From positions 1 to 53,774 of the forward strand of contig CAYHAI010000102.1 of NCBI GenBank assembly GCA_964354585.1: a stretch of DNA of 53,774 bases, in the 5' to 3' direction. Below, piece after piece: positions 9,001 through 42,000 of this stretch (position 1 is its first letter; each line of letters starts with the position of its first letter). This stretch comes from an uncultured Planctomycetales bacterium (GTDB lineage: Bacteria > Omnitrophota > Gorgyraeia > Gygaellales > Profunditerraquicolaceae). The notes beneath the pieces were generated by a model. It was not told the DNA's origin. It did no database searches and saw only the letters and a program-made list of their open reading frames with translations. Made by a program: the position numbers and the translations under genes.

Positions 9001-12000
9001 AGTAAATACCCGTTAGCGTAAACGAATTAATTGTTGCAGCAAATACAACATAGGCAAAAATGCTGTAGATTCTCTTTACAATATTTGTTTTTTTCTCAGG
9101 CAAGGTGGTTTTGACCAGTAAGGGTTTATTGATTACTTTTTCGCATGGGATAGCCTTGGTAAGTTTAGACGAATTTACATGCGCTGAATACAACTGTAGC
9201 GCATTGAAAAACATTCCTAAAATAATTATAATTACTATTGATTTTAATGTTAATTGTGCAAGATTAATAGCGGAAGTCTTGCCCACTGCGCTAGCAACAT
9301 CCGGCAATCCGCCGCTTATACCTGTAGCCGCCCACCAATGGCGCAGGGATTGGATAAACCCACTGATTTGCGGCCAGTGATTAAGCGTCCATACTCCCAA
9401 CACCGCCGCCACTGCCACCGCTGCCAGAGTCAAAATCATCACCCTGCCTGGGCGGGAATTGGGCGGCGATTTTCCTTCGAGGATATCGAGGTTTAAGAGC
9501 CCACCTTGTTGGGCATCGGAAGGAATTCTACCCTCCATCTGTTTAAGGATATATTTTATGGCTGGCGCAAGTTTCTGGAGCGCTTTATTACGAATCTGTC
9601 TAACGCGTTCTTTGGTAACATTTAATCTCCCCTTTCCTTTTTTTCCATTTTCTTTTTTTCCAATTTCTTCAAATGTCTCTTCTTGCCAATAATAGTAATA
9701 AATTACTATTCTTTCAGACTGGGTTAATCTGGCTTTGTGAATAGCTCTTGCAAATAAGTCTAAGTCTTCCAGGCACAACAATTCCTTATCTATATCCGCA
9801 GGCTCTGGGAAGGTTTCCAGGTTTGCCTCTCTAAAGAAAGCTACAGGTAAAGTGCTAGGATATTGCCTCGGGCTTAATTGATGGCTAAGGAATACTCTTC
9901 TAATTTTCGGCCAAATCTTTTTTGCCTTTGGACAGGCCTCTAAAAGCCGGGCATAAATATGCGGCGCCTTGTCCAACAACTCATCAAGCGTAACTGTATT
10001 TACATCAACATCCAAATAGCGTAAGGCATCAAGTATTTTGTTTCTTGTAACCATTCTTCGCCGGGCAATCTTCGCTATTACATCAGATTGATAATCACGC
10101 TCCAGAAGCATATCTACTGCCGCCGGCCAGCCGCCTAATTCACCTAATTCAGAGAAAATCATTTCCGCGCGCTTCACCAATAGTTGGTCAAAAGGCAATT
10201 CAGGCAGCCCAAAGGAAAGAGGAATAAGGTCTCCTCTTCTTTGCGCAAATAGTCTGCGCATTTCTCTGCGGAAGAACTCCAAGATTTCCCAAAGCTTGGC
10301 TTGCTTTCCAGGATCGGACCAACAATCTTTAGCAAATTCCGGCCAGCTCATCCCTCCAGGCAATCTTGGCCAAAAACGCCAAGGCGCTCTCTTAAAATGC
10401 GCTAACTGTCTTAATTTCTTATCCGGGGTAAAACAATATTTAACTTTTCCGTATTCGGGATGGCCTGTATCAACTACAAGAAACCATTGACCATTTTCAA
10501 AAATTGGCTTCTCCACCCTGGCTTTATGGCCTTTGGCGATTTTGGTAAGGTGGATTTCTACTCCTCCCATTCCAGAATATCCGTGCCTACCAAATTCTAT
10601 TTCAAAACCGTCTCCGCTAAAAGGCGGTTTCTGGGGATTATTATATATACCCTTTTTTGCAAACTGCGTGATTTGTCTTTTCTTTGCTGAAGCCACATCA
10701 GCCAAAACCTCGTCTATAATCTGAATGGCCTCTGGATATTTTTCTTGGTACTCTTTTCTTGTCTCTTGTTCGGCTTGGCAATGAGATTTTTTCTGGATTA
10801 CTTCTTTGTATTCATGGCGGGAAATATATTCTAAGACTAATTCGAGGATGCGCTGAATTTGCTGAGGAAATCTCCTTTTTATTTTTAAACTAAGCGTAAA
10901 AGGAAAACCTGGCGAGAAGATAACCCTTAAACAAGCTCCATCATATCTGCCAAAGGCGTATTTATCTGGCAGGTCTTTTGGCGGCGGGGCTCGGGAATCA
11001 AAAGATTTTATCACATAGAATATAACCGGTTTTCCTCCAACTTCTATCTTGAGCTTATTGTATTTATTTAAGCACCTAATTTTGATAGTTTTATCCTTTA
11101 TTCCTTTGGTCAGATAGCGCAAGCCTTCCTTTTTGAGGTTGCCCAAGAAGCCGAATCCTCCATCTATCCCGCCGCTGGGGTGGCCGAAGGAGGATATCTT
11201 ATTTAAAATTAAGGCTAATCGTTCGTCATACTTTTTTTCTAAAGCCTCAAACTTGTCTGGTTCTTTCTTTCGTAAGTCTGCTTCAAGCAAAAGCTCCTCT
11301 TGGCTATAATCTCTAATATATTCGGCCACGGCTTTCAGGATCTCCTCAGGATAATCTCCTTCTACCAACACATCATATTCACTTCCCGCCTCTCCTTTAG
11401 GCATAATGGCTAATCTAGTTAAGGCACCTAGATAACGGCGGGTATAGATATCAAGAATCTCCTTTGGATCTGTTGAGTCAAATTTCTCTCTGTAATGTAA
11501 ACCAAATAGAACGTAACACGCATTAGCAGTTACTGCATTTAAATTAGAAAAACCTTCTCTCCTTTTCTTTGCCCCTATTAACTCTGCTATTGTCTCAAAA
11601 TCTATCCCCGGATTAATAGTATCAGGGTTAATATAAATTTTAATCCCTGTTGTCTCATAAAGTTGTATAATTAGTCTGGACAAAATTACGACAGGAGATT
11701 GATGAAATCCTTTTGGTAAATTACATTGCACCTTATTTATGCGGTAAAAGCCTTTTCCGCTTTTATTTTTATACACCTCTAAACACCTCTTGGCAAACGC
11801 CTCATTCTCTTTGTCTGACCTGCCCAGGCGGACGCCAGCTTCGTGGATAAGGGTGATGAGGAGCTCTTTTTTGTTTTCGGGCTCAAGCAGGGATTCGCCA
11901 GGGGTAGTATCAAGATGAAGCACTTCATAGTTAGTTTGAGCTTCTTCTCTTACTACACCATAGAGATTAGGCATTGGCCCGGCGCGGCTTTCAATTGCGG

Positions 12001-15000
12001 CCATTTCTTTTAAGGAACGAACAATCTTTTTATCACTTTCAGCTAACCCTTGCGCCTCTTTTATAGTAGCCAGCAGATATTTTATTTTTTGAAAATCGGT
12101 AATAGGTAAATTATCTTTGATTTCCTTCTGGATTGCCTTTTCTTTCGCAACCGGCTCTTTAGGCAGTTTACTCGTCGGTTTTTCGCGGTGAGGATCCTGC
12201 ATCGCCACATTCATCCCGCCGCTGGCCGGGCCAGAAGCCGAGCCGTCCCCAATTATTTCCCCATTTATTCCGGCTGTGGTAGAAAGAGCAAAGACGAAAT
12301 CACATTTTGTTATGTCAGCTGCATCGCCGATCGGGACAAAACCCCGCTTTACAAGGAATTCAGGAACGCCGGATTCTTTTGCTTCTAACGCAATAGTTTG
12401 ATCCGATAATGATACCAGCTTCGGAAAGATGAATCTGCGTGGAAGCGCATGAATATTATCGTTATAAGCCGCATACAATATCAATTTAAGAGCCTTTTCG
12501 CCCAAGCCTCTGTGCCGATATTGCGAAAATATCAAGAATCTAAAATAAGCGTCTTCCCATTTTTCGCCGGCACGATACACGTATCCATACCCGACCATCT
12601 TATCTTTATCGTCAAGAATCATGTAATACCGAGACCATGTGGCAAATATATCAATAAAACATATGATACTTTCTCCGGGAATCGAGCATTTGTCAACATA
12701 TGACAAATCGGTATCTTCGGCTATTATCTTTTTGAATTTACGCAAAATAAAGAAACTGAATGCTATGCTAAGATTACGCGAGTCAAGTTCGCTATCAAAT
12801 CTTGCAGCTAGGCGACGCGCTGTTCGTTCATCAAGAGAGCGTCTCTCAACCGGACCGTTTATTACGAACGCGCATATCTCATTTGACTTAGCAAACTTCT
12901 CATGCTCCTCATCCGTCTGTTCAGGATAAACCAAAGCATGGCCTTCGTAGAAGAAGTCTGCTATTGTGGGGTTATCAATGAGAATAACGATTATGTTGGG
13001 CTCGGAACGCAGGTTTAAGATACGGACTGTTGTGTTGCGGTTCTTTTGAAATGCCTTGATTTCTTTACTCAGGTTAGATTTTTCAGGTTCAGGAGGGCCG
13101 GTTTTGACAATAAGATTCTCTAAGATTTCAACTATGTTAGAATCACCCTGGTTATCCTTTAATACCTGAATAGCTGCCTGCCTTAGCTGGTCATATTCGG
13201 TAGTCTTAGGCAAAGCCTTGATTTCCTTTGTATTTCTATCCCTGATAGTCTTTAATTCTTCCATTGCTTTTGTATCGGCCAGGGGCGGGTCGCAGCGAGC
13301 GGGGTCAAGAGAAATCGGCTTGACATAAGTTGTCAAAAATGGTATGTTTGTAATAGAGTTAGGAGGTAAGTAACTATGAATGCAAGAGCTAAAGAAGCCA
13401 AAAGGCACCTGGAAAAATTGCGTAAATTGGTCGCTAATACTCCATCCCCTTTTCAAGGAATGACTCTTGAAGAGGCAATCGCAAAGATGCGAAAAACCAG
13501 GGAACAGCTGTGGGAGGAAAAACTTGCACTTCGTTCTTGATACAAATGAATTTGTGGGCGCAACAGGATTAATCCGCAACCCGCCCTCAGAAACCCTCTT
13601 TAATATTCTAACAGAATCATCGCCAAAGCATACTATCCATATTCCTCGATTGATAATCAACGAAATAAAACGCAATATCCCCCCTAATATTTTTACAGAA
13701 TTTATAAAAACTGTTATTCCGATCGCTATCATTGATGAGGACATCTCAGTGCCTTTTGAGATAGGCATAAGATATGAATCTCTTGGTCTAAAACCTGCGG
13801 ATGCCTTTATTGCCGCATATACAGAATGGACCGGCGCCGACGTATTAGTAACTGAGAATAGACACTTCCTGTCTCGCCATAACCTTCCCTTTAAAGTCCT
13901 TACCGCCGAAGCCTGCCTTAAAGTTTTAGGTAAATAAACCAACCCGCCGCTGGGGTGGCCAAAAACGCTACTTAGTTGTTCAAGCACAGCGTCATACTCA
14001 TCTGAATAAGACCAGAATATTTCAGGGTATCTTTTTACGATGCTCAGAGGAATTAAAATAATGCCGACATCTTCAGCTAACTCTGATAAATCACCGGCAG
14101 CATCTAAAATAAAATCATATCCGGCTAAAGAGATAATCAGGTAAGTATGGTGTTCGTATCCCTGAAATCTATCGTCTTCTCGGTTAAAAATGGAAGAATG
14201 TATTTCATAATATAGAATATCTTTTATCTGTTCGGCCATTTCCCCAGAAGCCCTGCCACAAGGATTTATCTTAAAGTCGGATTGCTTAACCTTTACTCTT
14301 GTCTCATCGAGCTTATCAAAACGGGCTGCTAATGCTTCCACTTGCTCAAGCTGAGCCCTGTTTAATCTTTGGCCAGCATTTAATTCTTCCAAAATAGGCA
14401 GAATACGGCTCTTAAAATTCCTCGCCTCAAATCCTGTATACCTTGTAAAATCAGCTCTACTAATCCACATTCCCGGCAAAATTCCGGCAAAAAGTAGCCC
14501 TAAAGGCAATTTGCTTACCGTAGCAAAATGGTGACCAGAAAACAAATGGCTACCAACCAGCGTTACAATAGCGGCTGCGGCAAGAGCCACTAGGCCCCAA
14601 CCAGCCACGGTGAGGAAGCCCGAAGAAAATACCTGCCGCAAACGCATCTTTAAATATTCTTGACTTGGAGATAAATATATAGTATGCTCTTTGACAGAAA
14701 GAGGTGAAGAGTTATGCGAAAAGATATCAAAAAATCTATGGAACGAATTAACAAAATCCAACAACTTATGTCTAAAGTTCGCTCTCCTTATCGTGGCAAG
14801 AGTAAACAAGAAATAGTTGAGGAAATCCGCAAGACAAGAGAAAGAATCTGGGAGGAAAAGTTTGCTATTCATTCTCGATAGTAATGAGTATATATTTGCC
14901 CTTGGTGCAGTTCGAGACCCAAACAGCGAAAAAGTCCTAAAGAAAATAGCGGAACGGCCCGAAGACATCTTTGTGCGTATAACAAGATTAATTATTGAGG

Positions 15001-27000: not shown

Positions 27001-30000
27001 CTTGCGGCGGCTGGGGATGGGGCGGAGCCTGAGATTCCTTATGTGCTGCCGACTGGCTATCCTCTTTCCTAATATGCGCGTTGGCTACATCGGTCTCACC
27101 TGAGGCAATCTTCCTCTCTAACTCCAGCAGGGCCACCAATGCCTCCATCAGCATCACATCAATCTCGGTGTGGCCGGCTAAGATAGCAACATTGAAGTTG
27201 GACGAGCAACTTTCGCTTATTCTTTCCCACATCGTCCTGATTTGCTGCGATTTATCAATCAGTTTATCTTTTGCCTCTTTTACCTTTTCCTTGTCTTTTG
27301 AAGCAAGCCGTATGCTACAATAGGAGCGTTCCTCTTCACTAAGCGCATTCCAGACGCTTTCCAAAAGTTCTAAGTGGGGCTCAATTTCTTTCATACGATT
27401 AAATGTCTCTTCTACTTTATCGCTCAATCGTTTCAAGACGTATGTTTTTTCACCTAATTGCGGGACAAATCCTATACAATGGCTATGCAGATATTCGTCT
27501 AAACTTGCGCGTTCGGCCTTAAATTGTTCTTTTAGCGCAGGAGCAAAATATACATTCTCAATAATCATTTCAATAATACGCTCTTTGTCAAAATTATTGA
27601 GCGCGTAATTATAAAGTTTGAGCACCCAGCTGTTTGGCCCATCCTCTGAGAAATAATTCAATATCTCTTGTTGCGCCTCCAAATCTTGATTCTTGAAATG
27701 GAGCACGCTGTTATATATCGCTACCAATTGCCTGATACCTGAATTACTCTCCACTAACGGTAAGAGGCTCTCCCCTACTTCATGGAAACTGATTAAATGC
27801 TCTAGAAGATAAAGATATTCTAAGGCCTGCTCAGCTAATTCCAGCGTCTTACCCTTTAAAGCCGCTAATTTATCTCCTGCCTTTGCCGGTAAAACCTTAA
27901 TACTATCTATACAAAGCAATTTCCAGGAAGGTAATTTATCTAAAATGGGCTGAATCATGTCTGCAAATCTCCAAAGGCCCTCTATGCGTTTTCTGCTTGT
28001 AGGAAGGCCATCCGAAGCAGCCCACTCTGAATCAATCACCGTCACCAATGTCCCGGATTCAATCCAACGGCTCTGCGCTATTGAAACAGGCTCTTCCATT
28101 AAGATATGGCCAGAAGCTTGGGACGGTTCTGGATTGGTAGTCGTTATTGCAAATGGTTCTACAATGCCAAAGACTTGATAAAAGGCGGCGATTTCTTTAA
28201 CTGTAGCCTTTTTAGCCAATTGGAAATCTTGGCGCGCTGCTAAAAGCATCTCGGCTAAAAACTTATCCCGCTCTTTTTCTGGGATAAGCCTGGCGCGGGT
28301 AATTTGACGCTTTAACAATCCTACTATAACTTCTAAGATTTTTTCACGTTTATGTTTCTTGAGATTGGGAATGAGGCGGCCAAAGTGGTCAACCTTGATG
28401 ATTAAAAGGATAGTGCCAGCAGCCTTAAAGCAGGCAGAGCGTTCGGAAAGGAAAACCGTCTTGCGCAGGATGGCTTGCCAGTAGCGCGGCGCGCCGCGCA
28501 CAAGATTATTATCTCTTGCCCAGTCGCGGAAGACCTTGTTAAATACTGCTTGGTCATCAGCATAACCCTTAATCTTTCCTAAATGCACTTGGTTGCTAAA
28601 AGTGCTATAAATGGTCATAAACTGGGCTACTTTGCGCGACTCCTCCACAATATTACAGATTAAATTCAACTTTTCTAAGATTTTATCTTTCTTCTTTTGC
28701 TCCTGAGTCGAAAGCCCTGTGGTAAAAAGAAGCCCTGGCTGGATAGTGAGTGTTAATTCCTCAGCCAATTTGCCGGAGTCGATAATTTTACTGCGCACGC
28801 CCAGAAAATCGGGTTCGCTCAAATAGGGTAGCTGAATAAATGCTTTTAAATTATCCGCGGCTGTTTTCATCGCCTCGGGCGCCTCTTGCGTCAATAATGC
28901 CTCGCGGATATTTCTAGCCGCATCATAAACCTGGTCAAATCTATTGGCGCCAATTTGGCGCAGTCGTAAACGCAGATGCTCTAAATAGGCCAGTTCACTA
29001 TCTATCTGGTGTAAACGCACCTCCGCAAAGGGGAGACTAACTTCTAAACTGCTCAGCGCAGTTTTAAGATAACGCACTTTCATTAAATCTAAGGCGGTCT
29101 CCAGTTCCCGACGCATATCTTTCTTCGCTTCTACTCTTTTGCCTTTTAAAGAAGAAGTCAGCGCTTCTATTCTCTGGGCAATCTCTTCCAGCTCTCCGGG
29201 CTCATCCGTATCCACCAGCGGCGCTAATTGCGTACTAAGCGCGTTTATTTCTTGGGCTAATTTCTGCGTGTTTAAGTAATCTTTGGCTAAACCGGCAAAA
29301 ATCTTATCCAGAATGCGCTGCCAGCGGTATAACGTCCGAGTTTCTGGCTGCGCTTCTGGAACCGAGGCGCCCGTCTTTCTTCTATATCTACCCATCCAAA
29401 TCGTAATCTTACCGTCTTTTCTCTGCGTAATCTTGGCCCTGCTTTTCTTGCGCTCCAGACGTTCGTCTAACAACTGCTTCCTCTGCTGCGCAAAGGTATG
29501 CGAGAGACCTTTGAAAATCCACAAGGCGGCCATCTCATTTTTTTCTTTGATATACCTTAAGATTTCTCCGGCGCGGGTGATTCTACTTTTGCGGATAGCT
29601 CTTTTCAGTGCCCCCAGGCTTATCTGCACTACTTGGCCGCTGAATCTCTGATAAGCTAATCTAGTCAAGCGCTGTTGTAACTTTCTGATTTCTTCGTATT
29701 TGGCTTTAGCCCGAGCTTCTCGGGGTAGAACGGTCTGGCGGTAAAATAATCTCTTAGTCGAACGTTCTTTTTGTCCGCCCGCCCCGCCCCGCCGATGCGC
29801 CCGTGGACAATCCTGCGCCCCCGCCGCCAACCGCTGCCTAAGCTGCTCGGCGACTTGGGTGAGGGTGAAGCCCTGGGTGGCCATATCCTTGTATATATAA
29901 TCGGGCTGGGAATAGCTATCTTTTTTATCGACTAATTTCTTTAAAATCATATAGCCAAATGTAGCCATATATTCTTCAAAATCAGAGAAATGTGGTTTTA

Positions 30001-33000
30001 AGGCATCCATAGATTCTTCTGCCCTTTGACCTTGCTTTATATTTGTTGCAAGAGACTTTATATGCTCTACCACATACATTTGTATAGTAATGAGATGTAT
30101 ATGACGGATCATCTGAACTACATCGCTGAACTTAATTTTATATTTATCTTCTAACTTAATTAATACACCGAACTTAGCTACAACTGTCTCCCATTGTTGA
30201 ATTTCTTTTATATTCCTATCAAAGTCAGCGTATCTATATAAACTTTGTAGAGCTTCATCATCCACTTTTCCTGTTAAGTCTTTAATCTTTATATATAAAA
30301 TATAATTAGCAAAAAACACCATCGTCGCAAACATCTCGCATACCAACGTCCTCAACTTCTCACAAAGCCTTGTCTGGAATTTCGCCTTCTCGTATTTCTC
30401 CAAAATCCCCGCCGCCTCATCCATAAACATCACCCGTATCAACTCCTCGTCCTTCGTCCTTCGTCCTTCGTCCTTCGTCCTCAACGCTTCTCTCAAAATC
30501 TCCAGCGCTGTCTCAAGATTCACCACATTCCCCCCAAAATACGCCCACAAAGGTAAGACCTCTTCCATAATCCTTCTGGCGGCCTCCTGAATATCTATCT
30601 GGCCTGCTTTCAGGGCATCGTAAATATTCACAATCGCCGTATCCACCTCTTCCTCTGAGCCAACCAAAGGTGCAGTGGGGTATTGTACCTTGGTGTTTGG
30701 AACATAGAGATAGGCATCCACCAGATTGGCAAAGCCGGCTCGCTTGGACATCTGCTGTAACGAATTCAAATTCTTGAAGACCAGGGTTACCTCTAAGGGC
30801 GGCTTGAGCCCTTGGCGCCTCATTTCTACCAAGAAACGGCTGATCTGAAGCCAATTACCTTGCAAAATCTCTGCCTTGGTTTTCTTCCATGACTCGGTTA
30901 GCGCTGTGCACTGCTGTCGGGAAACTGGAGTTTTGGAGACCGCAATAAGCTGGGCAATAAATTTTTCCGCAGACAATGTCCAGAGCTTCAGTGGATCCAA
31001 CAGTGAGTCAATTACAGTCTGAACCTCTGGGTTTAGCTCAAGGAAAAAGTTTCGGTCTAAGATGGCAATTTGATTGTCTTTCGTTACCCGGAAGTTGCCC
31101 ACGTGGACATCGGAATGTGCCGTACCTCGTTTTAGTTGCTGGACATAATTTTTCACGATGAGGCTTACAATCTGCTTCATATCGTGGCCCTGTTGCAAGA
31201 GCGTCTCCCACTGGGTTAGATTTTCACCTTCTACATATTCTTCGCGCATAAAGTAGCGACTGGCCGGACCCCGTGATTGTGGCACTGTCAACTGATAAAT
31301 AAAGCCGGGTGCGGTAAACCCATTGTTTTGACTTCGAAACACTGCGTCCTTGCGTAGGAAGTCCTTAAAGTTTACGTCGCGCTTAATCCACTCCTTAAGG
31401 TCATCCAAGAGTAAGAGGGCTATGTCGTACTTGCGACCGTATAGACGTTGCAATTCCGTCAGCACTTCCTCAATGTAGCGGACATTGGTCTCCAAAAGAA
31501 ATTCTAAATTAGGATTTAATACCTTAAGGGCTTCGCTCTTTTCGTCAACCTTAGTCGCCTTATACACGGTCATCAGCGAGCCACCGCCAACTCGCTCCTC
31601 AATTCGCGCGACTTCCTGCCAGAATCCAGACCACTCCCGCTCCAACAGAGCAAGTGCGGCTAATTTGCTCTGACCATACACCTGATCAAACACCTTGCTA
31701 AAGACACCCTGTTCCTCGTCGGAGAGTTGCACGAATTGGGGCAAAAGCTGCAAAAACCGCACACCTACCGAACCAATGCGTTGCGCCACCTCAACCGCAA
31801 ACTCAAGTGGCGACATCACTGGCGCCTCTTGGCTGGGCGCGGCCACGCCTCTGGCCACTAACTGGGAACGCAAAAGCTCCTCGCCATACAGAAGCCACTC
31901 TCCCTCATAACGCCAAGATTGCTTTTGATGTTTTTTGATCTTTTCTGCCAACTCCTCAAGCGTGAGTGCGCCACGGCCTCTCATCAGCTTGAACAGAAGT
32001 GAGAAATCTGCCAGCTCGACCCAGCCATCAAGCACTCCCCCCCAGCCAGATAAGCGTTCAGGTGGAATGGCAATCCGGTCAGCCAAAATCTGCTGAAGCG
32101 CAAAATACAACGGCTTCCACGACTCTATCGTTCCCATAGCGCTAACCAGCTCCTGGATTATTCCCAGAAGGCCTGATTTACTCTGTGTGTCCACAGTCCG
32201 TTCCACTAATCCTTGCAAAAATTGTCGGCGCTTGCTCGGTTGAGAGAGCAAACCGGTGTCTCCGGTCAAAAGCTTCCTCAGGAGCGCATACTTGGCGCTG
32301 GTATCCATCCGCAATATCAAGGCCTCGCACTCCTCGACAAGTTGAATTCTCTTATTGACGAGCTTAATCACCTCGGTGTCTTTATCCATTGTAGATTCTC
32401 TCTCAGCTAATACATCTATATTTGAGATGGTCTCATAGAGCACTGCTTTGAGCGCCGCATCATCATCCCAAGACCTAAGCAAGGCCATCAGGAATTCATG
32501 CCACTTCTCTTCTTCTAAGTTCGCATTGCTTAAGATAGCAGCCAGGCCAAGTTCTCGGCTGCCCTCGCAGAACAAAGTATCAAGTGACTCTACTAACCTG
32601 CGCTGTGTTGTATGGAGTTCTTCCTGCGTGCGTGCGTCCTGCTCAATAAACTCGTGGAAGCGACGCAGGTCAAATAACTCCGCGCCATCGCGCTTGAAGA
32701 GCGCATCCAACTTCTCATTAAATGTCAGGGTTGGCCAGAGACGTGCATAGTAATATGACTGAAGCTGAAGTCTAAGGAAGGGGTCATTAACCACTGACAC
32801 TACCCGGCCAAGCTGTGCCAGTGCCTCGCGTTCGGGTGCTTCTGGTAGGGCCAACCACAACTGACTTAAGATGTGGCCAAACGCCTTGCGCTCCTCTGCC
32901 ATAATTTTAACTACCGGCACCCCCAGAGACTCCAATTGTTCAAGGTGAGCAAAAAACTCCTGCCAATTAGAAAATCTGGCGATATGCTGTGCTAAGATTT

Positions 33001-36000
33001 TTGCAAAGAGCGGCTTAGTAATCGCCGCCGCAGAAATTACAGCCTCGGCATCAAGAGAAAAATCAAGTTGCGCATCGCCAGAGAAAACTGGATAAAAGTC
33101 AGCGATTTCCTGGTCAGACCACTGTGGTTCAAGACATCTTCTTTCCACTGATTGCAAAAGCCGATCCAAATAGGTTCGGTCGCTGGAGGTAATCATACTG
33201 ATATATCGCAGCTCCTTGTCCTCTACGTTCGTCTCATCTATTGAGAAATAATCTCCTCCTTCTTGTCTTGCCAACGTTGATAGCTCTTGAATTACTAACC
33301 TTCTTTGTTCATCTTGGCCGAGTTTCGCAATATGATAACGCGAAGATGGCATAATATAGATTAGTGTGACTAAGCCTCTAAACAGCCAAGCCTGCTTCAG
33401 GGGTTCAGAGAACGAAATAAACTGTTCCCAGGCCCTCAAAGCACACTCATACAGCCGAAATAATACATAACCTTGCAAGCGCGAGCGAACCTCTAATCTG
33501 TCTTGTTCGTGCTCCAACAAGACCACCTTTTCATACTCATTTTTTGCCTTATCAGCAGCGTCAATCTCAGCTGTAACTGACATGAGCTTCTCTGATGTGT
33601 CAAAATAATCTGCCAGCGCAATGTCGTTAAAGAAAGCAATAACTTCCTTAGTGCTGCGATTATGCAGATACTCTTTCATCTCCTGCAAAATTTTTCGGTA
33701 GTCTGCTTGTTGATATGGCCTGCCAAAAGCGACTTTGCCGCGCAGTTGTTGAGCAAAGTCCTGCGCCCGCGCGTCAATTTTTTGGCGTTTCCACCAACAA
33801 GGCGCCTCTGCCTGCCTTGACTGGGTAGATACTGCCAGGCGCCTGCCTTCTTCTGTTGCCTCTACCTTCTGTTTGGCAAATTCAAGTAAGTCTTTCTGCG
33901 ACTCAAGCACGGCATAGAGCCGCTCTATCGTCCGCTCAAAAACTTCATCTACCTGCTTAGCCTCAATTCCTTGAGCGGCATAGAGCGCTCTGAAACTTGT
34001 GGCTAAGGTATGGGCCAAGTTTATATAACGTTCAATATTGGGCTGTGTTGGTTTTGTATTCAGCGCTAGTTGCATGATAAGCCATTGCGCCAGACGCTTG
34101 GCCAGTTTATTCGGCAGAATAGCTATTGGCGGAACAGCCAGCCCCTGAAACTCCGCAGAGCGCAGAACCTCGCTCATAGCCCCAACATCTTCAGGATGAA
34201 CCAAAAGTGCCTCATCTGCTTTGCGTCGTGTTTCTAACGCCTCCACAGCAGCCACCAGCTTCCCTGCCTTTTTCCTCGGCTGAAACCACGCAAGCCCCGC
34301 GTGCAACTCATAAAAGAGCAGCCTGGCTAATCCTCGCTGTTTGGAATTTGACCAGTTCAGTTCGCAAAAAAGTTCCTCATCTACTCGCCCAGCCAAACAT
34401 TTGAGAATTGTTTGGTTGACGCTCTGGCGATTACCCTGTTGTTCTGGTTTGACGAGTTGGATAAGAGCGCTAAGGGCAATGCCCAGTTGTCTGGTGGGCA
34501 GTTCCTTGGCAATGTTCAACCGCCGCTTCTGGACGGTTTCATACTGATTCCCCTGGATAAATTTGGGAACCTCGCCTCCAAAGTAGACTTGGTCAAAGGG
34601 AATCGCCGCAAGTTGTTTTTTAATCTGTTCTGGAATCTCTCCGCCCAATTCGCTGGAGAGCGTATCTATATCAAAGAAGTAGAATAGGCTTTCAATATTC
34701 AGCGCCCGGTCCTGAAGCGCCCCATGCGCCAAATCAGACCCCTTGATTCTGCCCGGCTCTTTCTTAAACTGCTCTAACCGAGTGAAGTAGACGACCCGAG
34801 CAAGGGGGTTGACCTGAAATTTACCAAACTCTCCAAACATCCAGCGCAGGTCAGCCTCATATTCAAGCGCACGTTGAACGCCAATAACTTGCAAAATCGC
34901 CTCAATGGTCTCGCGAATATTAGCAGTGGACTCTCTTAGTTTTCCTTCAAGTTGCTCTGCGACCTTCGCATGCTCTCGTTTATGATGCACTACCTCATGC
35001 ACCAACACCGCCTTCAGCTCCTCGCGATACTTCACAAACCCCAGTAACCCTGATGCCACCAGAATGGTTCCATCAGGCAAGACAGTAGCATTAATCTCCC
35101 GCCACTCCGGTAAGACATATAGAGAGTAGTTTGTGTCCTGCTCACCAAGAGCTTCTTTCAGCGCCTCCCGCGCATAGACCGTTACTGGATGCTCATCGGA
35201 GAGCCTTCCATATTTGAAGAAAAACCATTCCCTCATATAGGCACTAAGCCGATGATATCTCGCCTGCCCCTCGGCCTCAGCATTTGCCACTAACCGCTGC
35301 CTAAGGTCTTCGGCGACTTGAGGGCTGGGGACGCGGCAAGACTCATCAAACACACTTTTTAGTTCTTCTTTTTCCTCATCGCCTTTTACCAAATGAGAAA
35401 TAATTTTCAGAATATTTTTATATGCCCTATGTCCTGCGATATCTGTGATTTTTCTCATTCCATGAAAGTGCACATCTGTCAATACAATATCTCCATTACT
35501 TCTGACTCTAATATGTTCTTCGTCATCTAAATCCGTAACATCGGGCTCAATATTTAAGTCGCTCATTTTTCTTACCAACGTACCTAGTTTTTTAATAAGC
35601 CCTTTTCTTCCTTGATTATCTAAGTCCCAAAATGCTGATTGTATGTTGTATTTAATAAATTCTTCAATAAAATACCAGATACCCGTTCTCTTATCAAGAA
35701 TATGGCCGATGGGAATAGCCATAATTCCCTCCCCTGATAAAGGTAAATTTATATCATACTCAAGACTGCCTACTGCTTCTCCTTCACATTTCAGAACACA
35801 TGAGTTCGTAAGGAAATGGGCTCTTCCTTTCCAATATTCTCTTACCGCTCTAAGCGCTTCTAAATTTTTGACAACGTAGCAGGGTTGGTTTCCTACTGAG
35901 CCTATAAAACAAGGTACTATTTTCCCTAAAGTGGATATTTTACCTTCCAGGCCCAGTTCTCTTTCAAAATTCTGCCTGATTTTTTCTACGCCCATCTCCT

Positions 36001-39000
36001 TATCAACCTCTGCTGGCGAGCCAGTGTGGGGTTTGGGTATGGTGGTAACTGGTTGTATCTTCTCAGCCTTATAAACCGCATAAGCTCTTAGCTCATCTAA
36101 GTTTCCAGGAACCATACTAAAATCGCTTATATCTATTTGCGGTTGTGGTTTAAATTGAACGCCTAATTCTTTTCCCAGGTTTAAGAGTACTTCATCTAAA
36201 TAATATAGGTCTTTTGCAATAAAGGCGATATCATTTGGGTTTTTAGTTCCTTTAAATACAGTGATAGGAAATGCAGCGGGAGCATTGACAAAAATATAGC
36301 CACCATCAAGATTTAAACGGCTTACAATAGGTTCTATCATCTTTTTTATCTTAGACTCAAAATACCTCTTTGCATTATTTTCAACAACTTCAATGTCTGA
36401 ATGTGAAATATCAAGATTTAGCCTAAACCTTAATAAAGCTGCTAATTTGTCATCTCCAAATACATCTGTAACTTCCTGTATAACAGCTAATAATGTTATG
36501 TAATCAAATTTTTTATCTTTTATAGCATCATAGGAAACAAAAATACTTATTTTCTGCTCAAGGGCAAACACTTTATACAGTTCCTTTTGCTCCTCTATTA
36601 CAGACTCATCTATATCAATAACGTTAGTTTTAAGCCCCAGTTTAGCAAGTAAAATTGGCAGATAGTCGTTCCTGCCTGGACCTATAACCAGGGCGCTTTT
36701 ATCCTTTATCAATCCCATACCTGATACTTTTTGAGCAATTTGATGTTTCGTCTCATCATCAAATATAACTTTTCCTGAAATTCTATTTATATCATCAACA
36801 ACTGCTTTGACTTCTTCCTGAGTTATGGGCTTGGATATTCCACTGCCAAAAAGCCGAAACTCACCATTCCCCCAGAAAAGCTGGCGGGTTTCTATATAAT
36901 ATTGCGCTTGCTCAGCTGATATCCTCAAGGTTGGAGGCATTCCTGAAGAGGCCATATTGTTTATCACTTCAACGCAAAATCCATCTTGACGTGAAAGTGG
37001 TTGTATGTTATAGTTTCTTTGCTTAAGGAGGTGCTTTAAATGACTAAAGATAATGGAATGGATATTAGGATCAGAGATTATATCAGCTGTGACCCCGCTA
37101 TCTGTGGAGGAGATCCAGTCTTCAAAGGAACTCGTATCGCCGTTTACCTTGTACTGGACCTGATTGAAGGGGGAGTCAGCATCCAAGAGATTCTTAACCG
37201 CTATTATTCTCAATTGTCGGAAGAGGCAATCAGGGCGGCTCTGCATTATGCCAGCGAACTTATTAAGAGGTCTGAGTTCATCCCTTTCAACCCTGTAGAG
37301 GCGTAGAGTGCGGTTCCTTATTGATGAAAATATACCTAAGGAATTGGCTTCCTGGCTTAAAGAAAGAGGACACCTTATATTTTGCGTTGCCAAGGGAACA
37401 CCTGATGAAAAAGTAGCCGCGCTTACAAAACAACAAAAGTCTATACTCTTAACCCAAAACAGGCATTTTGCCAACTCTTTAAGGTTCCCTCCTCGTGATT
37501 TCCCAGGAATCATCAGAATTAAAATCCATCCTTCATATATTGGAGATATTACTTTTTCTTTAGAAAGACTATTTACCGAATTTACTGAAGAAAAACATTT
37601 CAAAGGCAAACTTATTATTTTAGAGAAATACGGATTCTTTAAACTTAAAGAATAGCTTTGCGTTGGCTTCTGCTTATCCCGCCCCTTCTTCCCCAGCCCG
37701 CCCAGATGCGCCATTTGTGTGCCGCCCATGTTCCTGCCATTTAGATTTTGGTCATCCGGTCCCCGACAACCGGGAAGTTCGGAGATGTGGGGCGGGGTAT
37801 TTTGAGGCTTTGCCCCAAGTTCACCCAGACCTTGAGGAGAATAGACAAAGGCAAACTTAGTGGTACGAAGAACGTCCGGGTAAATGTCATTAAATGCATC
37901 CTTAAAACTTAATAGTTGAAAATCTGATAGTATTTCCCAAGCTGCCGCTGCCTCAACTCCGAAAGATAATGTAGAGCCCCTAAATAAACACTTCATATCA
38001 TCTAGGTCTAATATAATAATGATTAATCCTTTTTCAGCTATTACCTCTTTTGCTATGTGGATAAAATTAGACAAAGTATGTGGACTTGGCGCAAAGATTG
38101 TAATTAAATCTAAATCATATTTGTCACTCCCTTTTACTTTTAAATCATTAACATCAAAAAATGTTACAGGTCGGTTATCTTCTCGGGCAGCTATAACAGG
38201 CTCGAGCAAATTCTCTATTCCAAAGTAATCTACCTCTATGAAATTTCTCTTCAATAACTCCTGCATCGTGAGTGTGGGCCGGCCAGAGCCTGCTCCAAAA
38301 TCAAGCCCACAAATACTCTCTTTGCCAGCAAAGAAATCACATATAAACTTTTCGAAAGAGTCTAGTTCTACTATATTCTGCTTTGAGTCCTTCTCCAACC
38401 GCTGCCTAAGCTGCTCGGCGACTTGGGCGAGGGTGAGGCCTTGCATGTGTAACATTTTTGCGATTTCCTCTTTTCGTACAGGCCCATAATTTTCAGGTTT
38501 GTCGGTTAGATTATGCAAACTCATATAACCAAATACGGCTAAATCTTCTTCAAGATTAGATAACCCGTCTTTCAAAAGCTTTACTGTCTCTTCTTGCGAC
38601 TCGTCCCACTTAAACAAAGACATTGTTTTGGTATCTTTAAAGAATGCTAGTATTCCATGTTTATGAAGTAGGACGTCATACATAGCCACTGCCCTATCCG
38701 ATAATTTCCCAAAACGATTTAAACTCTCTAAGAACTTCTCCCATTGTTCTCTCCCTTCAATAGAATACAAAAATGCAATAAGGCCTTTTGGGCCTTCTTT
38801 TTTAGTTAATTTAATTTCAATGTTTCTGCTTAATTCAATAATTTCTCTTTTAATATTATTAAACCAATAGTAACAAGAAAAGAAACTGAGTGCCGCCAGC
38901 CTGCGATAATTAAACCTCTCTAATTCCTCAAATAGCTTTGTCTGTTCTTTCTCATCCTTATACCTCTCCAAAATCCCTATCGCCTCTTGCATAAACACGA

Positions 39001-42000
39001 ACTCTATCAATTCCTCGTCGACGTGTGACGTGTGACGTGTGACGTGTGACCCGATGACTTTAATCCCTTGCCTCAGTATCTCCAGCGCTGTATCAGCATT
39101 AGGCACATTTCCCTCAAAATACGCCCACGCCGGCAAGACCTCTTCCATAATCCTTCTGGCGGCTTGCTGAATATTTATCTGGCCTGCCTTATAGGCATCG
39201 TAGATATTCACAATCGCTGTATCCACTTCTTCCTCTGAGCCAACAGTGGGCGGGGTGATGTTGAGATGTTTAATTTCACTTGAAAGCGGCTGGCGGGCGA
39301 GGTCAAGGAGAGACTGCGGTACAATATTAAATAAACCGAACTCTGCCATCCTTACAAGGTCCCTTTGCGCCACAGTTCCCAATTCTAAGCTAAGCCCACC
39401 ATCGCTTTCACTTTCATCTATTATTCTTGCATTAAACTGAAATCCTCCTTGGCTAAGCTTTGTCATCTCTTCCCGAATCTCTTGCGCAGTTGCTTCCTTG
39501 CCGTTTAAGAAAAATTTCTTTATTCCGCTGGGTGGAATAGGGACAGAATTCTTACTCTGCTGCTCTGATGGCTGCTGCCCCTCTGGGCCGATACCGCTGT
39601 CCTTCGCAAAGGCGCAAAAACCATTGACATTCTTGCCTATATCAGGTATATTATTTTTATGGCGAAGAAGGGCAAAACTAAAAGCTTCCTTACTGCTTAT
39701 GCTCCTGATTGCCGCAAGCGCCACCAGCATGAGCGGGATAAAAATGAAATAGTAGAATTTGTGGTGCAATTGGAAGTCGTAGTAAAAGGCAGTTGGCAGC
39801 CCGTAATTAGATACGATACTACTCATGGATTTGCTCATTGCGACATCATTCATTATAGTGGAAAGACGGAAAAAGTAAGGATGCCCACTCTTGATTATAA
39901 AGAAGCGTTGACCTATGCTGATGAAGACCTGAATGAGAATTGGCAGACTTACCGCAATCGCTATTTTAAGGAGGTAATTAATGATTAATGAGAAATATTT
40001 TTGGGAACTACAACGAACTCTCTCTGCAGAATTTAGTAAGTATGTCCTCGCCCATCCAGAGATAGACGACCAAATACCGGATAATGCCCAGATAATCTTC
40101 CAACTTAAGGGTAATGCGGATTTTAATGCCTGGAGTAAAAAGATAAATCTCTCCCAAAGAGAACCAAGCCAACCACTGATTATCGTTGAGATAGATGACC
40201 TGGCGCCGCCCTTAGAATCAAGGCTGGTCAATCCCCACTTAGAGGTTGCTTTTAAGTAAGTTTGTCTTATTGTCCCCACCAAAACCACAGCTAATACTAA
40301 TGTCCCGATGCCCCACCCATAACTACTACTCTGCCCGCCAAAACCAAATCTGCCAAAACCCGCGGCAAGAGAAGGCGTAGCAGAAGCAAGAAGGATGCCG
40401 AAGATGAATATGAATAGGCCAAGAATTGTGCTTGAACCCGGCGAGTCTGTGGAGGAATGCCAAGGTTCCACATACCCTAAAGCTAAATTCAAAACTCGCT
40501 GAAAAATTACATTATAATAATCTGGTATCTCCTGAATTTTTACTTTATGAACATTTTCGGGTCCTACAGTAACAGTGCTGCCGTCTTTGAGTCCTAACGT
40601 AGCTGAAATCTCAAGTTCGTCACTAACACGTTGTGCCTCTTTTAAAGTATTAATAAATTTTTTCCAGAGTTCTCCATAGAAGAAAATGCCCCGATGTTCT
40701 TGGCTTAAAGAAATCATTGTGAAAATTGCTTGTGTAGTATACTGAAGTGAGTATAGAGTCTGGGCTTCTCCTTCTTTTATTCTTGCGATTAGCTCTTCTT
40801 CTGAAATAACTTCTCCTGTAATAAGATAAGATATTGTTGCAATACATGCCTGCCAATTTTTGAATACTCCAAAATCTAATGTTTCTGTATGTCCCTGCGG
40901 AGGTTCAAATCTCTTCTTCTTTGCATAGCTTAATGCCTCCTCTATAGTAAAATTAAGTTCAGTCATGCTGCTTAATCTGAAAAGAACAGTTAATGTGAAA
41001 GCAAATAAATTTTGCAAAAATTCTTCTCTTTTACTTAAATCAACGGTCCTGCTAAAGTAATCAGCCGCGTCAGATTCCAAAATCGGTTGGATTTGTTTAT
41101 GATAGATTTTTTGCAGGGCGGCTTTGGAGGGACGAAGCATCTGGGGAGAGCCTTGGAATTGGGCGAGGACGGGCATTAATAATTCGGCTTTCTTACGAAT
41201 GCCCTCTGGCACATAGTAAAGCGCATCTTTGCCGGTTCCGATGCGTTGCAATAAATGCAAATATAGCGCTAGCGCCCATAAATCATGCTCAATGGTTGCT
41301 GGCTTCACCTTTAAGCCCTCTGCTATTTGCTTTCGGCTGCGGGCTTTTTCTTCAGTTGTGATTTCCTTCTCGCAAAGCCAATCAAATACTCCCGGGATAG
41401 AGCCAGAGGGGGTGGTATCGGATTTTTCAACCAGCTGGTCATCAAAGCTTTTCATCGCCAGAGGATATTGTAGTTTTGAGAGCCACCCCGGTACACACAA
41501 ACGCCAAGTCTTTATCTTGCTACCTTCTCTGCCTAAGCGCACTTCTTTGATGTTCGCTAAACACTCAAGAAATCTACCTATGGCTAAACAATAATCCCTC
41601 ATTCTCCAGATTAACTTATCTGTCAATACCAATGAAGAGCCCTCCTGCAATAATACCACCACGTCTGTCCTTAAGGGATGATTTAGATTTCCTATATTGT
41701 GTATGGCTTCGTAATGGAGAGCTTTTAAAAGGATTTTTAGATTCTCATTCTTGCTTCCCTGGATTTCCCTATCAAAGCTTATCTGATTCAGTAAGTCACA
41801 GATATGCCTTGTTTGGTCATCCATTTCTTTTAAAATTTCTTTTGTTTTCTCTGAAAGCTCCTTTTCTGGAGATAGCTTCTCAATATTCGCTAGAATTGCC
41901 GCGATTATCGGCCCGAACTTTTCTTTCAGGATGCGCGCCTCGGCGTTGACTCGCTGGGCTGGGGTTTGGGTTTGTTTAGCCGGCGGTTGCCTGGCGAGTT

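Follow-up and report, generated by a model that had tools for sequence, protein, structure and literature searches.

Giant open reading frames (ORFs) that combine many Pfam domains and are rich in transmembrane segments have been reported from the Omnitrophota (West-Roberts et al. 2023, 10.1101/2023.11.21.568195; Nielsen & Lui 2026, 10.64898/2026.06.07.730766; Seymour et al. 2023, PMC10066038). In the accessible text of these papers the published giants comprise an 'Archaeovorin' type and a 'multi-enzyme metabolic cluster' class, and proteomics has been published for a giant-ORF organism, V. archaeovorus. We have analyzed a stretch of 53,774 nucleotides from an uncultured bacterium placed in the Omnitrophota by GTDB (assembly GCA_964354585.1, contig CAYHAI010000102.1, positions 1 to 53,774 of the forward strand), referred to below as the window. 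A single minus-strand reading frame is open through the entire window, and complete genes lie opposite to it. The window probably comes from the interior of a giant multi-enzyme ORF, associated with the membrane, that would be translated by read-through, with antisense cargo nested at the boundaries between its modules.

As far as the accessible text describes the Omnitrophota giants, the window resembles them in being a single ORF of tens of kb with many unrelated Pfam domains (methyltransferase, HATPase_c, response regulator, HEAT, peptidases, glycosyltransferase), in having roughly one hydrophobic segment per few hundred residues, and in its poorly conserved sequence. Its repertoire and its density of hydrophobic segments match the published 'multi-enzyme' class (Module 1 and Module 2 in the accessible text of 10.64898/2026.06.07.730766). 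The nearest named relative of one of its nested proteins (76% identity) and the locus L099, described below, are moreover labelled Omnitrophica. The window has no marker genes, and its own sequence points to this phylum through mobile cassettes and domain content only. Unlike many of those giants, in which such domains are common though not universal, the window has no SecA_DEAD or C39 peptidase domain; Pfam found neither SecA_DEAD nor an N-terminal C39 or S8 peptidase domain in the window, and the N-terminus of the giant lies beyond it. The accessible text of the three papers mentions neither opposite-strand genes nor tRNA genes within the ORFs nor stop avoidance, and nothing on them was found in the open-access and bioRxiv literature. 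We conclude that the giant multi-enzyme ORF is of a known Omnitrophota kind, and that the nested antisense genes are an apparently undescribed addition to it.

Viral polyproteins, such as those of flaviviruses and picornaviruses, place many units in one ORF with no internal starts, hydrophobic segments at the boundaries and embedded proteases. The window shares with them the many units in one ORF, the hydrophobic boundary segments and the embedded proteases (here M48, M50 and CPBP), but no cleavage or 2A-like motifs were found in it, it belongs to a cellular DNA gene whose length is at least 15 times greater, and its opposite strand carries functional genes. Rickettsia palindromic elements and other miniature inverted-repeat transposable elements are, in the accessible text of PMC10969869, inserted in frame in coding genes and translated as a tolerated extra peptide. 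The inserts of the window likewise preserve the reading frame, are stop-free and would be read through; unlike those elements, which are short and non-coding, they are 420-700 bp long, non-palindromic and without terminal repeats, and they consist of complete opposite-strand operons or RNA genes under selection. Promoter-bearing toxin-antitoxin (TA) cassettes occur in sedentary chromosomal integrons, 19 per ~130 kb in Vibrio cholerae (accessible text of 10.1101/2022.08.03.502626). The window's promoter-bearing two-gene units are apparently exchangeable as well and have a similar density (7 per 53.8 kb), and an array-stabilising role is plausible for them too, whereas the window has no integrase, attC-like palindromes or shared boundary sequence of that type, and its 'array' is a putatively translated ORF on the other strand. 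The bacterial antisense overlaps known to us are single and short, with both products thought to be functional proteins. Here too each strand of the DNA would yield a product; the difference is that one partner is an ORF of more than 50 kb and that the overlap is apparently constrained only to lack stops.

The giant frame and its missing stops

The minus-strand frame is open from position 2 to 53773, with no stop in 17,924 codons of the six-frame translation. The remaining five frames contain 572-1,452 stops each over the window, about 0.08 stops per codon in the other two minus-strand frames. The start and the stop of the giant ORF both lie beyond the window ends, and the window is thus an internal part of it; at more than 53.7 kb the ORF is well above the 20 kb that marks an Omnitrophota-type giant multi-enzyme ORF. 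The original prediction had described a chain of modules without stops at 13264-37660. The chain is real and runs in one frame through the whole window, and its architecture extends past that range, with further cassettes at 39659-40259 and 48738-49159.

About 20 Pfam families, including PF08241, PF02518, PF00072 and HEAT, are tiled along the giant polypeptide, and none dominates. The open frame, Pfam matches and codon usage together define the giant ORF (2..53773, minus strand), in which Pfam places two HATPase_c domains of the histidine-kinase type, XRE-type HTH_31/HTH_3 repeats, several S-adenosylmethionine methyltransferases, Peptidase_M48, ABC1/UbiB, HEAT repeats, an Rce1-like CPBP intramembrane protease, PPDK_N, a Response_reg receiver, Sigma70_r4, Peptidase_M50 and a GT2 glycosyltransferase. 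The composition of the translated protein is ordinary. A Kyte-Doolittle scan finds about 49 hydrophobic 19-residue segments spread over the frame, some of them within the stretches opposite to nested genes.

Coding signal was measured as codon-usage log-odds trained on the giant frame itself, with stop codons neutralised, in 300-nt intervals over all six frames. The giant frame is the best of the six in nearly all intervals, with a mean of 21.8 per 100 codons; its score falls to ~0 at the cassettes, where frames of the plus strand score best. Further nested genes or frame-shifted relics were considered for other low-scoring intervals (e.g. 4201-4800, 8851-9300 and 35551-35850) and rejected, as the score of the giant frame stays above 10 in them and the ORFs on the plus strand are noise-like. 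The nested units number nine, at eight sites and all antisense to the giant frame: seven two-gene cassettes, a tRNA gene and a unit resembling a small RNA (sRNA) gene.

The strongest evidence comes from the stops that these nested genes do not create. For each gene the nested protein sequence was held fixed, synonymous codons were redrawn from local usage and stops in the giant frame were counted. The 14 nested genes are expected to contain 42.4 giant-frame stops and none is observed (joint P ~1e-22). Seven of the 14 are codon-aligned with the giant frame, and TTA, CTA and TCA codons are absent from all seven. When, for the other seven genes, the synonymous codons were shuffled within each gene, 11.5 stops were expected and again none is seen (P ~1e-7.6). 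Of the three phases that a nested gene could take against the giant frame, one is used by none of the 14; in it, to judge from the genetic code, stop avoidance would forbid common dipeptides (Phe followed by Ile, Met, Thr, Asn or Lys). Over the nested stretches the giant frame shows no sign of amino-acid selection, stops alone being excluded; the nested genes keep their protein-level constraint, and it is their synonymous sites and their phase that leave the giant frame open. Such a pattern would be expected if ribosomes must traverse the junctions while the spacer peptide is irrelevant. The deficit of stops implies that the giant frame must be read in triplets across the junctions. Read-through translation of the chain is in this way strongly supported, and the earlier preference for it over re-initiation stands: the modules share one frame, have no start signals of their own and are joined across cassettes from which all expected stops are missing. 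A functional protein antisense to the DUF7718 cassette was also considered and is unlikely, as the peptide is Cys/Phe/Asn-rich junk with 37% identity, against 55% for the plus-strand proteins.

We propose that ribosomes starting far upstream would pass every junction. Any stop would be polar on everything downstream, so that stops would be purged and the frame kept. The antisense stretches would be translated as meaningless spacer peptides between modules, often beside hydrophobic hairpins, and the cargo would be exchangeable within slots bounded by conserved DNA that codes for hairpins and N-domains. Cassette lineages that are stop-free on their opposite strand ('translation-transparent') could live in a giant gene without breaking it. 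More speculatively, the hairpins might anchor the modules in the membrane on either side of the spacers, the M48, M50 and CPBP membrane proteases within the chain might cut it, and TA cargo, at one per 7.7 kb, might stabilise a repeat-rich giant gene against recombinational deletion as it does in chromosomal integrons. Candidates for 2A-like StopGo peptides, inteins and SEA/GDPH-type autoproteolysis were looked for at the junctions, and no motif was found.

Module boundaries and proposed exchange of cargo

Searches with the ABC1 region returned homologues at 40-57% identity. Seven homologues were aligned with the combined M48-ABC1 segment; every alignment reaches giant residue 7690-7692 and no further, and five of these proteins stop 1-7 residues later. 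One of these (P0010) is a free-standing M48 + ABC1 protein of 1,212 residues that is colinear with giant residues 6191-7690; four others (P0004, P0007, P0009 and P0001) are free-standing proteins of 518-1,081 residues. Locus L094 keeps this order with a separate ORF each for an M48-like gene, an ABC1 gene and one further gene. The closest relative, L098, has the segment divided between two frames, and there it ends 137 residues beyond the boundary. In the window the natural C-terminus of M48-ABC1 (giant residue ~7692) falls at a cargo-free junction (30680..30710, minus strand) where there is no stop, and the frame continues (AYLYVPNTKVQYPTAPLVGSEEEVD) into a next module that is paralogous to residues 4840-5131. 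For the histidine-kinase modules, the module end coincides with the C-terminus of full-length kinase profiles. An exhaustive search with the module at residues 9431-10376 gave 935 relatives with a conserved core of ~600 residues, which is the C-terminal part of free-standing proteins of 600-1,200 residues in some cases and an internal piece of proteins of 3-8 thousand residues in others; these matches always end just ahead of the hairpin and tRNA slot.

From the free-standing homologues and the varied states of fusion it follows that the modules are whole proteins elsewhere and that the cargo lies at module boundaries. Several complete functional units thus occupy one ORF in the manner of a polyprotein, with module ends that coincide with free-standing termini. 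The modules had been taken for former independent membrane proteins; their independence is borne out by these termini, and their membrane character is not general, since residues 5607-9170 contain one hydrophobic segment only. The module chain is likely to have grown by gene fusion and segmental duplication.

Internal paralogy within the giant is extensive. An N-domain beginning at a D-P-A-R motif is common to four module starts, and a hydrophobic hairpin to three module ends. The N-domain at 24981..25408 (minus strand) has paralogues at 22029-22450 (79-90% identical), 19959-20377 and 12888-13306, the last two being 91% identical to each other, and it forms the left-hand flank of four cargo slots. 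A GC-rich plus-strand motif, GCGGGC[GA][GA]GGTC, stands at the left edge of the four slots (25408, 22450, 20377 and 13306); it could be a recombination site or merely the conserved start of the N-domain. The hairpin at 26102..26248 (minus strand), with paralogues at 15338-15457 and 22782-22960, is the right-hand flank of three slots. A second hairpin, with an AAGFGRFG loop (40268..40432, minus strand; paralogue at 49181-49342), adjoins the 3' ends of the DUF7718 and HicBA cassettes. A transmembrane hairpin or a lipobox-like segment had been predicted at each junction; within 13264-37660 a hydrophobic hairpin precedes four of six, and it is missing before the first of two PIN cassettes (PIN1) and before the cassette at 37040-37655. 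Module ends described as lipobox-like are weakly so. Nor does every junction contain a protein cassette, as had been supposed: 22450-22872 holds the tRNA gene and the sRNA-like unit instead.

The paralogous flanks are 79-91% identical, yet their cargo differs. Left flanks that are 90% identical over 348 nt adjoin the aspartyl-protease cassette in one slot and the tRNA gene with the sRNA-like unit in the other, and flanks that are 84% identical over 438 nt, up to the -35 hexamer, adjoin DUF433/DUF5615 in one and PIN in the other. DNA homology between the DUF7718 cassette of the window and its relatives covers the two genes only, with or without the promoter. The cassette ends have no terminal repeats, terminal inverted repeats or attC-like sites, and Pfam finds no integrase domain in the window; an integron or transposon structure was rejected on these grounds. 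We favour the view that cargo was inserted or exchanged at permissive module boundaries, and exchange may have occurred by homologous recombination between the repeated flanks.

Alternatively, the cassettes would have pre-existed between independent minus-strand genes, and successive loss of stops would have overrun these ancestral neighbours and fused everything into one frame. Such a history fits cargo that sits exactly at module boundaries, in convergent and divergent positions, and modules that are independent genes in relatives (separate and in the same order at L094, split at L098). However, fusion through a pre-existing cassette needs several to about ten stops to be removed from each before any read-through, and hence any benefit, is obtained, which is why exchange or insertion is preferred. 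Identical flanks with different cargo also stand against it, as do the presence of the same cassette families (DUF7718 and aspartyl-protease) in unrelated giants with homology limited to the cassette, and one cassette clade that is free of opposite-strand stops even outside giant ORFs. We therefore hold this history to be unlikely. The idea in the original prediction that the giant gene grew by welding is supported for the modules and, in the form proposed, lacks support for the plus-strand cassettes, given the different cargo in matching flanks and the cassette families shared by unrelated giants.

Other giant frames, control loci and alternatives to read-through

Related loci were retrieved with the DUF7718 protein and, for L099, with the nested aspartyl protease. 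L019 is JGI contig Ga0247841_10000175 (175.5 kb), and its cassette is 71% identical to that of the window at the protein level. The strand opposite to it is open across the entire 20,309-bp locus, for 6,769 codons and off both ends. Nested in L019 are DUF7718/DUF5647, an MNT/HEPN pair (NTP_transf_2, E = 9e-11; HEPN, E = 6e-22) and, likewise on the plus strand, four small ORFs that form two paralogous pairs, and against 16 giant-frame stops expected in the nested ORFs there is none. L099 is NCBI contig JAHIZL010000153.1 (GCA_018814545.1), and its protease, labelled 'Candidatus Omnitrophica bacterium', is 76% identical to that of the window. Its minus-strand frame has no stop anywhere in the 12,973-bp locus, which contains four cassettes in an array (DUF5678-like with aspartyl protease; DUF5647; HicB-like with HicA; a small protein with PIN). 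Here 22.8 stops are expected and none is seen (P ~1e-12.5), and the style of promoters and Shine-Dalgarno (SD) sequences is that of the window. In the public record of L099 a 5,025-residue minus-strand gene begins at an internal ATG (9595), with seven plus-strand genes called upstream of it; the frame is actually open through those called genes, so that the annotation hides the nesting by truncating the giant ORF. For both L019 and L099 similarity to the giant protein of the window is confined to the cassette, and the giants are unrelated. Among GTDB representative genomes, those with the nearest relatives of DUF7718 carry the label Elusimicrobia.

Control loci behave differently. In cassette relatives outside the clade to which the window's cassette belongs, antisense open runs are mostly 30-130 codons long, and low-GC relatives outside the clade all have aligned antisense stops, at 1-7 per 100 codons. 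For L015 and L016 (75% identity), the high-GC relatives closest to the window, the figure is two. A further locus, L002 (JBBAAR010000004.1, 9700-10900), has the cassette in frame with a minus-strand gene that encodes more than 3,249 residues, at its 5' end or just upstream of it. The L002 cassette is flanked by a duplication of ~250 nt that covers the signal-peptide start of that gene, and this looks like the footprint of a duplicative insertion. At L100 an antisense run of 568 codons crosses the cassette, between large minus-strand genes.

Giant ORFs could on this basis be landing pads for mobile 'translation-transparent' TA operons, tRNAs and sRNAs that are stop-free in antisense in a fixed phase and so could colonise, and move between, slots in giant genes and perhaps in any very long transcription unit without truncating it, while their addiction function may protect the repeat-rich giant gene from deletion; we put forward this extension tentatively, rating it slightly short of an even chance. 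Whether Omnitrophota ORFs of 20-440 kb are translated as single units has been in question since their discovery; stop avoidance is a clean sequence-only evolutionary test of the matter, applicable to the hundreds of published giant ORFs, and under the landing-pad reading purged stops in an irrelevant peptide would be the first proof of that kind that giant ORFs are read as single units. For bacteria it would be unusual to find functional operons and a tRNA gene nested within a translated ORF on its opposite strand, and such nesting would imply mobile cassettes adapted to read-through. There is a consequence for annotation as well: of the giant ORF and the genes nested in it, gene callers retain only one, with the result that TA systems, tRNAs and sRNAs are missing or the giants are truncated. 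An exact record look-up of one nested protein gave no entry, as expected if gene callers discard nested genes. As hypotheses for the growth of giant genes we suggest whole-gene fusion, module duplication and cargo exchange at conserved slots, with TA cassettes as anchors against deletion.

Several points weigh against read-through of one giant polypeptide as the whole explanation. At eleven loci (L001, L002, L017, L018 and L020-L026) the cassette is not inside a giant ORF, yet an antisense ORF spans exactly the cassette; these cassettes belong to a clade 51-75% identical to that of the window. Openness may therefore be partly a property of the cassette lineage, or may serve some other end in any long transcription unit, e.g. 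avoidance of polarity. Such lineages may pass in and out of giant genes, or else transparency is of advantage in long transcription units of other kinds too. Support at this locus comes from the sequence alone, with which SD-independent internal initiation is also compatible, and a motif search identified no cleavage sites at the boundaries. The membrane segments come from a hydropathy scan only, and some may be spurious, since the antisense of hydrophilic genes is intrinsically hydrophobic. Finally, a 1,500-residue segment of the giant had no match in GTDB representative genomes or in an index of 5.8 billion proteins (E <= 1e-5), a 3,309-residue segment had none in JGI metagenomes and an exact 30-mer had none in IMG/VR. 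With no orthologue of this giant, the case for selection at the junctions is built on within-sequence statistics and on analogous, not orthologous, loci.

The first of these points leads to the possibility that translation merely shields a very long minus-strand transcript from Rho-type termination, and that the spacers, or perhaps the whole chain, are cut or degraded at once. The cassette-spanning antisense ORFs outside giants, the in-frame position of the L002 cassette ahead of a very long gene and the long antisense run at L100 all agree with it, and so does the codon usage of the giant frame in the spacers, which is non-coding-like. Ordinary operons, however, escape polarity with separate ORFs, and the missing stops and ribosome-binding sites of the modules are then left unexplained. 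Anti-polarity also refines read-through translation rather than replacing it, and as a sufficient account we judge it quite unlikely.

A further alternative has each module translated independently: transcripts would begin inside the giant gene, translation would start on them without an SD sequence or a leader, and the lack of stops would be incidental. In-frame ATGs do follow several cassettes. The five that had been proposed as module starts are present, at 13264, 14647, 25456, 36955 and 22507 (the last had been given as 22505). GAGG lies directly upstream of the ATG at 22507, and an in-frame GGGAGG-N5-ATG occurs at residue 6018, upstream of the M48 module. A usable SD sequence is nevertheless absent upstream of all five, as had been stated, and the organism clearly uses such sequences on its nested genes. 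The ATGs are not the module starts either: paralogue homology begins upstream of them, at the D-P-A-R motif, and in one paralogous 'start' the ATG is indeed replaced by ACG (20333-20335, KATEEL against KAMEEL). Minus-strand pairs of an SD sequence and a start codon number 24 in frame against 49 and 6 in the two other frames, which is no in-frame enrichment, and none falls at a module start. Scanning the window with a strict promoter pattern gave six plus-strand matches, five of them at nested units, and two minus-strand matches, with no strict-consensus minus-strand promoter at any junction. Independent initiation would moreover give no reason to purge the expected stops or to hold ~25 modules in one frame, and we consider it very improbable. 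Artefact (mis-assembly, a chimera, non-biological sequence or a chance shadow ORF) is a negligible prospect, even though searches of four collections returned no close relative of the giant protein, as the chance of so long a stop-free run is nil, the stop counts and real Pfam domains in frame on the minus strand rule out a shadow ORF, the modules have homologues at 40-57% identity and two independent public contigs have the same architecture.

The nested units

Read-through of the giant frame would coexist with plus-strand genes that have expression signals of their own. Each of the seven cassettes has a near-consensus sigma-70 promoter, TTGAC[ATG]-N17-TAxxxT, and the claim that these are real genes with promoters of their own is borne out. 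A strong SD sequence precedes the first gene in six of the seven (TAGGAGGT, AGAGGTG, GGGAGGT and AAGGAGGTG among them), again in agreement with what had been noted. Codon usage of the nested ORFs is native in their plus-strand frames. Decay into relics was ruled out for these genes by their intact Pfam domains, promoters, SD sequences, native codon usage and an omega of 0.32 for the PIN pair.

That pair consists of two paralogous cassettes. PIN1 (13376..13937, plus strand) has a small antitoxin-like gene at 13376-13540 followed by a PIN gene to 13937; the PIN match is weak (E=3e-3) and under the Pfam gathering score. Its promoter is TTGACA-N17-TATGTT (13320-13348, plus strand) and its SD sequence TAGGAGGT. 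PIN2 (14714..15275, plus strand) has the promoter TTGACT-N17-TATGCT at 14660-14688. The two share 60% amino-acid identity, and the omega above was obtained in the plus frame. They are mosaic, with 85% DNA identity between the 3' halves (13731-13942 against 15069-15280) and 5' halves and antitoxin genes that are far more diverged, which suggests gene conversion between nested cassettes.

DUF433/DUF5615 pairs occur twice on the plus strand. In the first (20445..21043) DUF433 lies at 20445-20687 and DUF5615 at 20693-21043 (E 8e-18 and 2e-23), behind a plus-strand promoter TTGACG-N17-TATATA and the SD sequence GGGAGGT. The second (37040..37655) has DUF433 at 37040-37306, DUF5615 at 37308-37655 and the SD sequence AAGGAGGTG. 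Mutual identity of the two is 25-31% only, and they are independent acquisitions by this measure. The HicB (48738-48941) and HicA (48938-49159) cassette (48738..49159, plus strand) was recognised by Pfam; HicB/HicA and both DUF433/DUF5615 pairs score above the Pfam cut-offs as members of TA families.

The remaining two cassettes are conserved gene pairs with a putative TA function. One (25485..26134, plus strand; promoter at 25436-25464) joins DUF5678 (25485-25730) to a retropepsin-like aspartyl protease, probably at 25712-26134. Homologues of this protease have 131-137 residues and cover just 81% of the 162-residue ORF that opens at 25646, so that the true start is probably the ATG at 25712. 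The last ~11 codons of the protease ORF extend into the conserved hairpin flank. In the other (39624..40259, plus strand; promoter at 39624-39652) DUF7718 (39659-39988) is followed by DUF5647 (39981-40259), with E values of 3e-35 and 4e-19. The DUF7718 gene begins ~7 nt past the -10 element without an SD sequence, and its mRNA is probably leaderless; the partner DUF5647 has the SD sequence AAGGAGGT. All seven cassettes can be classed, from their gene content, as type II toxin-antitoxin-like operons.

The tRNA gene has the anticodon GCU (22566-22642, plus strand; Rfam, 64.9 bits) and lies in a unit of its own (22530..22690) with a promoter at 22530-22558 and an intrinsic terminator hairpin at ~22646-22686. 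GCU would read the serine AGY codons, yet the tRNA has 77 nt, a variable arm of 5 nt and a G discriminator base. A long variable arm is the rule for tRNA-Ser in bacteria, and the short arm found here makes the amino-acid identity of this tRNA ambiguous. Directly after it lies the sRNA-like unit (22704..22816, plus strand), with a promoter TTGACA-N17-TATACT that agrees with the consensus at 11 of 12 positions, a structured transcript of ~75 nt and a terminator hairpin with a T-run. The fold has -30.2 kcal/mol (z = -4.6) and matched no Rfam family; the transcript is probably a new sRNA.

Three features of the surrounding giant gene may be added. GC content is 46-48% at 28000-36000 and 40-43% elsewhere; the GC-richer stretch covers the M48-ABC1 region, is free of cargo and has one hydrophobic segment, and it may differ in age or origin. 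Three or four XRE-type HTH_31/HTH_3 units stand in tandem at ~44000-45300 (giant residues 2819-3266), and DNA-binding domains are unexpected in a membrane-tethered polypeptide. Plus-strand GC skew is negative in every 2-kb interval, so that the coding strand of the giant is G-rich, which fits a leading-strand placement of the giant gene with the nested units head-on to replication.

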